From the NCBI GenBank assembly GCA_021513715.1, contig CP084167.1:736001-800000 (forward strand): DNA of 64,000 nucleotides. The letters are read 5' to 3'. This document shows positions 58,320 through 64,000 of this stretch, in pieces. The notes under the pieces are model-generated. The model was not told where the DNA came from. It saw nothing but the letters and a program-made list of their open reading frames with translations, and searched no databases. Each line of letters opens with the position of its first letter. The stretch's first letter is position 1. The position numbers were made by a program, and so were the translations under genes. The stretch comes from Candidatus Heimdallarchaeum endolithica (GTDB taxonomy: Archaea > Asgardarchaeota > Heimdallarchaeia > Heimdallarchaeales > Heimdallarchaeaceae).

Positions 58320-59162
58320 TTATTCTCTAACTACCCTCTTAACCTCTGGGTCGATTAAAACGTCCAACAGACCTTTATCTATAAATTCTTTCAATGGTGT
58401 AAGATCAATTTCTTGCAAACAATTGAAAGACAAATCCAATACCGATAAACTTGTACATTTCTCAAGCGGAGTTAAATCTATTTTTTCCAACTGATTTGAC
58501 CATAAATGCAACTTGTCTAGGTATTTACATTTTTTTAGCGGGGTTAAATCAATGTCTTTCAATTGATTATTGTCTAAATACAATTCTATTAAATTTATAA
58601 ATTTTTCCAGTGGGATTAAATCTATTTCCTTTAGCTGATTGTCTGATAAAGATAAACATGTTAGATTTTTACATTTTTGTAGAGGGTTTAAGTTAATGTC
58701 TTGTAATTGATTGGAAAACAAACCTAACCATGCTAGATTTGTACATTTCTCTATGGGGCTTAAATCTATTTTTTTCAACTGATTATCGTTTAAAGAAAAA
58801 TTCATCAAATTTGTACATTTTTCTAATGGAGTTAAGTCTATTTTTTTCAACTGATTATTATTCAAAAACAAAATTGTTAGGTATGTGCTTTTTTCCAAGG
58901 GAGTTAAGTCTATTTCTTTTAACTGATTATTATTCAAAAACAAAAATGTTAGATATGTACATTTTTTCAAGGGAGTTAAGTTTACTTCTTTCAACTGATT
59001 ATTTGCTAAAGACAAAAATATTAAATTTGTACATTTCTCTAGAGGAGCTAAATCTATATCAACCAACTGATTGAACGCTAAAATCACCTCTTTTGCATCT
59101 TTATTTATTTCTTTAACAAATGTTGTACCATCAGTTTTTTTTCCTCTTATCTGTATTGTCAT
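58320..59162 (-). CDS. Leucine-rich repeat protein (about ten 22-aa repeats); C-terminal domain decayed downstream
   Basis: NQLKEIDLTPLEKCTNL repeats; broken downstream frames give ERLQTLQQVIKR...LLGFTNEDAFLHWLYQFP. Confidence 0.9.
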   Translation of the reverse strand: MTIQIRGKKTDGTTFVKEINKDAKEVILAFNQLVDIDLAPLEKCTNLIFLSLANNQLKEVNLTPLKKCTYLTFLFLNNNQLKEIDLTPLEKSTYLTILFLNNNQLKKIDLTPLEKCTNLMNFSLNDNQLKKIDLSPIEKCTNLAWLGLFSNQLQDINLNPLQKCKNLTCLSLSDNQLKEIDLIPLEKFINLIELYLDNNQLKDIDLTPLKKCKYLDKLHLWSNQLEKIDLTPLEKCTSLSVLDLSFNCLQEIDLTPLKEFIDKGLLDVLIDPEVKRVVRE

Positions 59163-60555: not shown

Positions 60556-62232
60556 TTATTTTATAGGAATTAATTCCAATAATTGAATATTTACTCCAGT
60601 ATAAATTTCTCTAGGTCTAAAATTTCCACCGATTATTGGAGCATAAGACGGGGTTGTCAGAAAATTTGGAGGAGGAAAAATATGACCAACTTCGTTTTTC
60701 GTTGTCAAACCAAATGCATAAGGTAAAAAGATGTTCCACTTTGTTGGGTTATATGGATTAAATGGAACTTCTGAATTAATATTTATTCTCTTAACTACAT
60801 AAAACGGACCTGAATACTTTTCTAGAATTGCAGTATAGTTAGAACTAAGATATATTTCCAATTCAAGAACATACTCTACCCAGTATCTCAAATCGGAATC
60901 AACATTTATTATCACTCCATCTTTGCTAATTAAAGCTGGAATGAGCTTCTTTATCTCTAACAGTTCGAGATATTCATCTTCTGTTATTGTAGGACCCATA
61001 CCACTTGAAAAGAAGAAAGCACTAAGAAAACCAGATAAACCAAATAAAATCACTAGAGAGTATGAAAAGATTTTTTCCTAGCCTTCTTTTCTGTTTATCT
61101 AATGAAATGTTAAAGTTAGAGAAAACTAATTTCACAAAATCTTCAAGAATAATTAAACTACCAGGAGTTATAAGCGAAATAGGAACAAAAGCGAGAAGAA
61201 CAAATCGCATTCCCCATTCACTTGGAATAAAAGGTAAGGTAAGGAAAAATAGGATTACAGCCATAGATAAGACTAGAAGAGAAGAAAAGAAATATTTTCG
61301 AAATGTTTCAAAAAGAGATTTGTTTATGTTTTTAAGAGATTTAGTGAACATTTTGATGAAAAAAATAAGTCCAAAAATGTAAGGAAAAGTAAGAAAAATA
61401 ACAAAATTTGCTCTTGTTTGTTGAGTTGTAATTGTTGATGACGAAAAAAGATCCTTGATGAAACTTCTAACTTTATTGAAAGTATAAAATGTAGTAGGAA
61501 AAACAAAGTATAGAACTGTTAAGACAATCACCGTAGTCAATAGAGAAACGATAAGGATAAGACAAGTCTTTTTAGAAATTGTTTTCTTTCAATTATTACA
61601 AAAGAGAAAAGACCAATAAAGAGAAGCACTATTCCAAAAGCAGCTGTATAAAGATGAGTTGCAATGGTTAAAATAAAAGAAAAAAATGCAAGAAATACAT
61701 TTTTTTTCTTCATAAAACTTTCTTCAAGAGTAAGAATAAAGAAATAAAGAAAAAATAATAAAAAGAACACTCCAGCTAGATTTTACATAAAATCCTCGAT
61801 CATTCTAAGATAGTACCAATTAAAAACAGATAGAAAACTCCCAAGCAAACTAAATATTGTGGAATGGCTGTGCTTTTTTTCTAATATGTGATTAAGTATC
61901 AGAAATGTAGGAACAGCAATGAGAGAAGAGATTAAACTCATTGCAATCTTTATACCAAGAAATGAACCAAAAGTAACAACAAAAGGAACCATATAATAAT
62001 AAACAAAGGGGGGGTCATTAGAAGCAGTAGAACCTGTTTGTAAAATATTTTTTACTTGAATATCATAGTAGGGACCATCACGTCCGTAGGAAAGATTATA
62101 CTTAGTTAATAGTATCAAATCGAAGATAAAGGAGAAAATGACTAAAATAGATAAACTTATCCATTTATACTGTAATAATTTTTTTATATTTGATTTTTTG
62201 TCTGAGAACGAACCACTCTTGCTAGATAGCAT
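60556..62232 (-). pseudogene. GT-C-like polytopic membrane protein in four fragments
   Basis: GRDGPYY...DPPF N-terminal loop; in-frame TAA at 61783, frameshifts near 61545 and 61055 link four ORF-track fragments. Confidence 0.7.
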
Positions 62233-62332: not shown

Positions 62333-64000
62333 CTAGGTGTTTTCATTACATTGTGGAACCTTTATTTCAAAAGTCACATTCCCTTCTTCGTTTGTTACTA
62401 AATCGATAGTTCCATTTAATTGATAAAGCAGTTTTCTTGAGATCAATAAACCCACACTATTATGATTCTCTTTCTGAAAAGTCTCTTTAAATAATAACTG
62501 CACTATTTCGTCTTCTATTTTTGAACCATTGTTAGATATTTTTAAAACACAATTTTTGTTTCTTGAAAAAATTTGGATAAAAATTTTGGTTGCTTTTCCA
62601 TGAGTTGAAATTTTACGTAATTTCTTCAGGACTCTCCCCAACCAACCAACAAACTTAGCGAAAGTTGTGAAGACTGGATTAAGAGAACATGAAAGACACA
62701 GTCTTAATTAAGTTCTCCAAGGGGTTCATCTCCTTACCCCGGGCACTCATAACTCCCAAAGGGAAGCCCGGGTGTCGTAGGAATGAAACCTACGTCTTTA
62801 AGCATCTAGCTCAAGACACTAGATAAATGAGAATTAAATATATAAAGATAGCTGAAAAGTTGTGACACTCCCTAATATCTTGTATGTATTCTTTATTTAA
62901 GCAAATGTGTTTCAGGTTGTTATTGGTCTAATAACTCCACAAATTAAAAATTTAGTTTTTTACGTAAAAAAGTATCTCATGCTTGATAGCATTAGAAATC
63001 ACATTATAAACGACAGAAATTAAGGTTCTATTTGCTTTTGCACAGCAGTTTCCTTAAATAATAAATTCTGTTTTAAATTGTTTTTTCAATTTATGTATTT
63101 CTTTTTTGAGATTGATAGAATAAGATGAAGCAACAAAGTCTTGATTAATCAATGCTGTAAGATTTTCAAGTTCAATGGAAGCAATATTTAAGTTCTCTTC
63201 TAAATTATCACAATATTTGTCATCCCTTTCCAGTTTGTATAATTCTAAAAAACCAATCATTGAAGTTATCCTATTAGTTAAATCATGTTTAATTATTGAA
63301 TAAATAGCTTGAGAAGTTTTATTTAGCTGTTCTACCTTATTCTTTGTTGTTATTAATTCATTTAAGATTAGATTGTATGGTTTCATTATTCCTTCTTTAA
63401 TCAAAATGTAGAAGAGAACTGATACACTCAAAAAAGCAAAAAAATGGCCGAAAACATTGGATATTCCGTAAACACTTACGTAGAAAGTAAAGAATAGTTC
63501 ACTTAGTGCCAAAAAGAATAAGTGAAAAAAGAAAAAAATACGAATGTTTTTTGCAAAAAAACTCCCTTTATAGACAAAGTAAGCCGATATAAGAAAAATA
63601 GATGAAACAAAATATTCACTAATTTTTTTGAAAACCGTTAATCCTACTCCTTCTATATAACATACAGGAAAATATCCTGCAAAAACTAAATATAGCATTA
63701 TTCCTGTAAATACTGTATAAAGAGAAACAAAAACTGTAGAGTTAATATCTCGTTTATAAAATATGAATAACAAAATTAGAGTTAAAGCATCAATATATCG
63801 TGCCAAGATCCATAAACAACTAGGTAAATTAGCATCATAACTTGGAAAAATATTCATTCCCTTGTACGCTAGTGTATGAAGGAATTCCACTAGACCAACA
63901 AAAATTTTTGATATCCCTAGAAGAACAACTAGATAAGAAGAAAGATAATTTTTACTAGCCAAAGCAATAACAAAAACAAAGATAAGTGTTACGATTATTG
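62333..64000 (-). pseudogene. MASE3-domain sensor histidine kinase, disrupted (5' end beyond window)
   Basis: HTLAYKGM..WILARY MASE3; KHDLTN H-box; in-frame TAA at 63054; VISNAIKH N-box resumes as HGKAT...ISNNG...GL after a 375-bp insertion. Confidence 0.85.
62603..62977. mobile_element. 375-bp non-autonomous inserted element with subterminal inverted repeats and GC-rich hairpins
   Basis: CATG duplicated at 62599-62602 and 62978-62981; ends AGTTGAAATTTTACGTAA and reverse-complement AGATACTTTTTTACGTAA; excision restores NAIKH-GKAT. Confidence 0.85.

Follow-up and report, generated by a model that had tools for sequence, protein, structure and literature searches.

A protein-less element in Candidatus Heimdallarchaeum endolithica is very probably an omegaRNA-only derivative of a TnpB transposon

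Protein-less omegaRNA elements are already known as a class. The Spu-1 Fanzor ghosts of Spizellomyces punctatus (Saito et al. 2023, PMC10432273) are bounded by inverted repeats and keep an omegaRNA without a protein, and the PATEs of IS200/IS605 (Meers et al., bioRxiv 10.1101/2023.03.14.532601) have no open reading frame and share their ends with TnpB elements of the same genome. The element analysed here is like both in these respects, and its ends are unusual. Cutting by TnpB followed by repair from filled copies has been shown for IS605 (bioRxiv 10.1101/2023.03.14.532601) and IS607 (10.1101/2023.11.20.567912). Both Heimdallarchaeum genomes and their many repeats were described by Wu et al. 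2022 (PMC8813620), and a term search of that paper for the element's ends found no mention of them.

The genome analysed is a single 3.33-Mb contig, congeneric with Ca. Heimdallarchaeum aukensis PM71, and by the window we mean the whole 64-kb stretch of it that was studied. A histidine kinase gene on the minus strand (62333..63962) is interrupted there at its N-box, and excising the insert in silico restores the motif (NAIKH|GKAT), in agreement with the exact split that the first-pass annotation, made from the sequence alone, had described. This kinase is a pseudogene that also has a second in-frame stop at 63054-56, unrelated to the insert. The whole element, with both AT cores counted, occupies 62600..62980 and is biologically on the minus strand; the mobile element formerly given as 375 bp is real and multicopy, and the net insert is 379 bp. 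Both of its junctions are marked by CATG (62599-62602 and 62978-62981). The motif ATG-N8-TTTTACGTAA occurs exactly twice in the window, once at each element end (chance expectation 0), which agrees with the subterminal match 8 nt inside both ends that had been pointed out. The left subterminal inverted repeat, TTTTACGTAA, lies at 62960..62969 on the minus strand, +11 to +20 from the core, and is common to the solo TnpB elements of the genome. A further match of the ends at a terminal AG holds in the window copy and is not kept by sister families. The element has no open reading frame. The earlier suggestion of mobilisation in trans appears right. Elsewhere in the window, a leucine-rich-repeat (internalin-like) gene at 58320-59162 belongs to a multicopy family of the genome, and a membrane protein gene at 61022-62232 is apparently split into two or three frames (61022-61540, 61537-61770 and 61783-62232).

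The BLASTN comparison with this and other Asgard genomes that had been advised revealed 16 near-full copies here, with identities of 85-97%, as well as two 365-bp variants and about seven fragments. The sister genome, Ca. H. aukensis, gave 11 matches, and BLAST against 39 other relatives gave none. The closest copies are 1-2 bases apart, which indicates that the element moved recently.

Target sites were then compared across all copies, as had also been proposed. Empty sites defined against the sister genome retain one AT: eight sites of this genome, orthologous to insertions in Ca. H. aukensis, have a single AT each, and these targets include T-AT-C, C-AT-A and T-AT-G. In three families, the 4-mers at the left and right junctions do not agree with each other in 5/18, 3/13 and 10/10 copies. 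Since these 4-mers are unlike and the empty sites have a single AT, only AT is common to both junctions, and CATG is a preferred target, C-AT-G, and not a 4-bp duplication. The CATG flanks that had been described are therefore found at both junctions with their outer C and G being target bases, and the fallback offered at that time, a DDE MITE with a 4-bp CATG duplication, is ruled out as stated because AT alone is duplicated.

In the orientation of the RNA, the left AT is preceded by C in 43/43 junctions, and G follows the right AT in 32 of 41 (12% background), which makes the target palindromic. Family A, whose own end reads TCAT, avoids T before CAT (2/33 against a 35% background, p 1e-4), whereas family B, whose own end reads TGAT, prefers it (9/10); the difference between the two is marked (Fisher p 9e-7), and the same flank pattern was found in other genera (11/11 and 10/10). 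Every filled family-A site contains CAT and the guide, so self-cutting would be prevented by a TAM that does not admit TCAT. Read in this way, the flank bias is as expected from a TAM by which each family would leave its own end uncut, predicted to be (V)CAT in family A and TCAT in family B; in the window copy the predicted (V)CAT would be formed by the left AT core (62979..62980), the flanking C at 62981 (minus strand) and the preceding base, here G. The bias could also come, wholly or partly, from a preference of the integrase instead of TnpB.

The terminal base next to AT varies (G, A or C), and inverted subterminal repeats are present in all families with motifs that differ between families. 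An internal CATG at 62688..62691 is a secondary breakpoint that yields right-end mini-elements of 91-93 bp: four independent truncated copies end exactly there without an internal repeat, and one of them rejoins the host sequence in register. The metagenome scan yielded more copies, one truncation and one inversion only. The inversion, on a metagenome contig (L119:1778-2155), turns exactly the segment from the right-end AT to an internal AT, and is either a genuine recombination product or an assembly artefact. Taken together, the palindromic 2-bp core, the variable terminal base, the truncations at the internal CATG and the AT-to-AT inversion suggest conservative recombination at the 2-bp AT core; the junctions alone fit a 2-bp core and a 2-bp target duplication equally.

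By sequence homology, the minus strand carries a TATA promoter and a putative TnpB omegaRNA homologue of about 220 nt. The TATA box that had been noticed is present at 62839-62846, about 26 nt upstream of the start of the omegaRNA homology; its core, TAT.T, is conserved across 14 copies with its spacing retained, and the layout from TATA box to RNA is identical in protein-less ghosts of other genera. A sigma-70 promoter scan is uninformative for archaea. The spacer between the left end and the promoter (62851..62959) is poorly conserved, with a mean identity of 74% as opposed to 92-95% in the ends of the RNA, and falls to 48-56% in the oldest copies. The predicted scaffold spans 62600..62818 and so reaches the element's end, which replaces the structured RNA of about 100 nt first proposed. 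Its first hairpin (62794..62818) is a decayed remnant of the last TnpB codons, VLSQWLQT in relatives. A central stem at 62738..62772 holds an inner hairpin and an AUGAGU bulge (62745-62750). The GC-rich stems listed in the first-pass annotation are all present; the 7-bp CCCGGGC stem is perfect mainly in the window copy, and its conserved part is the 5-bp CCCGG/CCGGG. The AAGGAGA that had been taken for a Shine-Dalgarno sequence belongs, together with ATG, to a conserved omegaRNA motif, GGAGATGAACCC, at 62722..62733, and is not a ribosome-binding site. A terminal hairpin (62607..62624) overlaps the right subterminal inverted repeat (62611-62620), and the final scaffold bases, ACUCAU (62600..62605), contain the right AT core (62600-62601). 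Positions 62584-62599 would, on the model of TnpB omegaRNAs (PMC10097598), be the guide, read on the minus strand into the flanking kinase gene.

The homology was recovered in both directions. TnpB homologues in other Heimdallarchaeaceae have 3' regions with the minus-strand motifs of the element, ending in AACTCAT. An nhmmer profile built from 22 TnpB 3' regions of other genomes only found 18 loci here, all of them element copies, and its match to the window copy has an E value of 8e-8. A covariance model of the structured region, which had been recommended, was built from element copies only and found TnpB 3' ends at 10 loci (E 2e-7 to 3e-5). Its strongest matches elsewhere are parallel ghosts of about 355 bp in four other genomes, in which the TnpB promoter is fused straight to the codons of the last TnpB residues, followed by the whole RNA. 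The homology of the window element starts at 62818, the same point as in these ghosts, with the decayed form of those codons. Conservation among the 22 related TnpB ends stops immediately after AT. An Rfam search of the element showed no family near its gathering score.

The minus strand folds more stably than shuffled sequences do (z = -3.5). RNAalifold predicted a 6-bp long-range pair, AUGAGU:ACUCAU, in 13/13 aligned RNAs with one double-sided change, and the equivalent pair of the local TnpB elements is AUGAUU:AAUCAU. This pairing of the internal AUGAGU with the terminal six bases resembles the pseudoknot of the ISDra2 omegaRNA (PMC10097598). Across the copies of the element, pairing holds in 97% of the cells of the proposed helices, compared with 35-50% in slid controls. 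Covariation within the element copies alone is weak (4 double-sided pairs, reached in 7/500 shuffles).

Ends of the TTTTACGTAA type also bound about 12 solo TnpB elements of 1.85 kb in this genome, whose only gene is TnpB. In these proteins the aspartates of RuvC-I and RuvC-III are present, glycine takes the place of the usual RuvC-II glutamate, and an alternative glutamate stands ahead of the zinc finger; a rearranged RuvC-II site of this kind has already been described (PMC10530073). Local TnpB genes lie, for example, at 1568860-1570311 and 709214-710722. The closest scaffolds to the element RNA are those of TnpBs from other genera, proteins about 45% identical to the local ones, and the local TnpB 3' ends match the element covariance model weakly (E 0.004) or give no match, so that a cognate TnpB may be absent. 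No close cognate TnpB was found in either closed genome, and 96 related TnpB loci included no autonomous element. We also inspected orphan left and right ends, all repeat families and 19 further end-like sites of this genome, and found no autonomous parent and no transposase between ends.

Family B has TTTTGTACA in the position of TTTTACGTAA and includes its own TnpB elements and protein-less copies of about 357 bp. These omegaRNA-only copies (699973-700328, 396404-396760, 2204200-2204556 and others), with TTTTGTACA ends, come from a TnpB element with a canonical RuvC, and have TGAT at the right end and TCAT in the left flank. In one related genome (G001; L019:297-2051) a family-B TnpB element sits in the internal CAT-A site of a family-A copy, the remainder of which is lost. 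Another genus (L080-L101 and L102-L110) has larger TnpBs, of 520-570 aa, with the same kind of omegaRNA; they are preceded by 3' pieces, variable in length, of a HerA-like ATPase gene, and show no recognisable left end. At 2006471-2008201 of this genome (1.7 kb), a 460-aa open reading frame with a possible nuclease-like C-terminus lies between a left end like that of family A and a right end like that of family B, and is either cargo or chance.

As an explanation of the whole locus, we consider it very likely that a TnpB transposon of Heimdallarchaeaceae gave rise to the element, which would be a non-autonomous 'ghost' of the omegaRNA-only kind. It retains the left end, the TATA promoter and the complete omegaRNA, and the protein gene is lost. 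The earlier idea that a deletion had left a non-autonomous derivative with its structured RNA was sound, and so was the proposed tie to an RNA-guided system. Given the homology to TnpB omegaRNAs, what the RNA would lead to the empty site is a nuclease and not a recombinase. In the mechanism that we propose, transcription of the RNA would start at about 62818 and run past the right end into the flanking DNA, and a TnpB encoded elsewhere would load the transcript. The complex would cut the empty site, (V)CAT plus flank, and spare the filled site, which reads TCAT, and repair from a filled sister chromosome would restore or spread the element. Movement itself would be a conservative recombination whose crossover spans the 2 bp of AT; this is the weakest step, and as the enzyme acting in trans we favour a serine recombinase by a small degree.

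As for the enzyme, an IS607-type TnpA from outside this assembly is possible but rather unlikely. The HTH-serine TnpA of IS607 is absent from both closed genomes and from the surroundings of the 96 related loci. IS607 elements of related genomes were considered as the source and rejected because their left ends differ. That the mobiliser is one of two short serine recombinases encoded by the host is a speculative proposal, which we also rate as rather unlikely. Each closed genome has only two serine recombinases, both short, with a catalytic and an LSR-type recombinase domain and without a zinc ribbon; here their genes lie at 316728-317480 and 405348-406097, minus strand. They are syntenic, stationary host genes in 23/25 Heimdallarchaeaceae genomes and were found in 0/225 others searched. 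The closed Ca. H. aukensis genome has no tyrosine recombinase, and the short enzymes might replace XerA in chromosome dimer resolution. They became candidates by elimination of other enzymes, but this argument is weakened in that kin show both traits as well. Also counting against a hijack, the host recombinases are strongly conserved, yet the subterminal end motifs vary more between families. A scan for a host dif-like site with two end-like arms, resembling a circle junction, gave nothing above shuffled controls, and no extra paralogue of the short serine recombinases was found inside AT-core ends among the loci listed. We would put forward only very tentatively that TnpB and omegaRNA-only elements without a transposase hijack one of these host serine recombinases, maybe the stand-in for the missing XerA. 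If true, elements that exploit Xer would have a counterpart based on serine recombinases, in which movement is coupled to retention by the RNA-guided TnpB.

Other enzymes were also considered. No serine recombinase or Y1 partner accompanies any of the 96 related TnpB loci; aCas1-like partners occur at 20 distant related TnpB loci, mostly of Thorarchaeota, and this genome has no aCas1-like gene. A tyrosine recombinase does not fit as mobiliser. A 33-copy IS5-like element, a DDE element of about 1 kb (e.g. at 219979) with AAGCATGTCC terminal repeats and AT-rich targets, was rejected as unrelated: it has CATG within its own terminal inverted repeat, but its duplication is longer and variable. The only IS200/IS605 element with a Y1 gene (923870-925960) has its tnpA interrupted at the start by a copy of the element studied here.

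Two alternatives keep the omegaRNA ghost or its RNA and change the enzyme. The same ghost might be moved by a DDE transposase that duplicates 2 bp, AT, of its target, a reading that we regard as unlikely yet serious: DDE elements typically have inverted ends and a palindromic target, IS630-linked TnpBs with symmetrical ends are known (PMC10691335), and the fungal Spu-1 Fanzor element has inverted repeats, a conserved upstream CA and ghost loci with no transposase found (PMC10432273). Nevertheless, five genomes gave no match to IS630 (PF13358) or DDE_Tnp_4 (PF13359), the IS5-like, IS6-like and IS481-like elements of this genome bear ends of their own, the bases beside AT are not fixed, the repeats are subterminal, and the internal CATG is used exactly without an internal repeat. 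An IS200/IS605 PATE, moved as single-stranded DNA by a Y1 (HUH) enzyme, in which CAT would be a TAM that is not duplicated and TCAT the element's own end, is less probable still, and we hold it to be quite improbable. It would suit the junctions, which by themselves fit the order TAM|element...TEM|flank, the terminal hairpin at the right end, and the fact that PATEs often encode omegaRNAs, and the genome has one Y1 gene. That gene, however, is the one that a copy of the element has disrupted, the closed sister genome lacks Y1 despite its 11 element matches, the left ends of related elements lack hairpins, and the G preference after the right end together with the left and right inverted repeats points to symmetric recognition of double-stranded DNA.

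The remaining alternatives concern the RNA. An ordinary MITE that carries the RNA region as a non-functional relic would agree with the lack of a close cognate TnpB in either genome and with the youth of most copies, for which high identity is expected; we judge it improbable, since the ends of the RNA are conserved at the level given above while the spacer has decayed in the oldest copies, the TATA spacing is kept, the ghosts of other genera retain the same promoter-RNA fusion, and the flank bias agrees with TAM logic. The first-pass annotation had favoured a derivative of IS110/IS1111, in which the RNA would be a bridge or seek RNA guiding recombination, and the subterminal inverted repeats, the 2-bp core and the non-coding structured end do form an IS1111-like layout. 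This assignment proved wrong, and we give it hardly any weight: searches gave no match to PF01548 (DEDD) in this genome and none to PF02371 (Tnp) in this genome and four relatives, and the RNA is homologous to TnpB omegaRNAs and begins with a TnpB C-terminal remnant. A ghost derived from a TnpB transposon is the reading that we keep.

The family represents a natural library of stand-alone guide RNAs with predictable targets, for a clade of Asgard TnpBs that is uncharacterised and whose active site is rearranged. Genomics alone gives testable TAMs, (V)CAT for family A and TCAT for family B, with a built-in rule that spares the own end. The enzyme that moves solo TnpB and Fanzor-like elements bounded by inverted repeats is narrowed to a short list of candidates in two closed genomes. 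Should the host serine recombinases be responsible, this would be a new mode of movement for RNA-guided selfish elements, in the archaeal lineage closest to eukaryotes.

Comparison with the described systems places the element as follows. It is like the Spu-1 ghosts (PMC10432273) in that conserved base(s) upstream of the left end are part of the TAM, the transposase was not found in the genome, and the nuclease has a rearranged RuvC-II; it differs from them in its Asgard host, prokaryotic TnpB, short subterminal repeats, shared AT and RNA of about 220 nt with its own TATA box. As in the PATEs (Meers et al., bioRxiv 10.1101/2023.03.14.532601), an omegaRNA would be used in trans and the TAM is slightly unlike the own end; unlike them, it has no Y1 partner, its relatives lack a left-end hairpin, its ends are inverted repeats and its target is palindromic. 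With IS607 (CboIStron, bioRxiv 10.1101/2023.11.20.567912) it shares a 2-bp core at both junctions, a scarless empty site, short subterminal motifs and a TAM that extends the core upstream, and it differs in having AT rather than GG as the core, clear inverted ends, which IS607 is described as lacking, and no IS607 TnpA. The nearest relatives of the TnpB clade, at 33-39% identity, are the Asgard aCas1-associated TnpBs of Thorarchaeota (Cas1H-Asgard; Altae-Tran et al. 2023, PMC10691335). These Thorarchaeota relatives (L121, L125 and L195-L229) lie head-to-head with aCas1-like genes of 1,600-1,900 aa and have the GTTCACTCA motif as in PMC10691335. Unlike those loci, which do not match this omegaRNA model, the genome studied here has no such gene. 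On the features tested, the element fails membership of IS110, IS607 and the Y1-moved PATEs, and it resembles Fanzor ghosts and omegaRNA PATEs with IS607-like junction chemistry.
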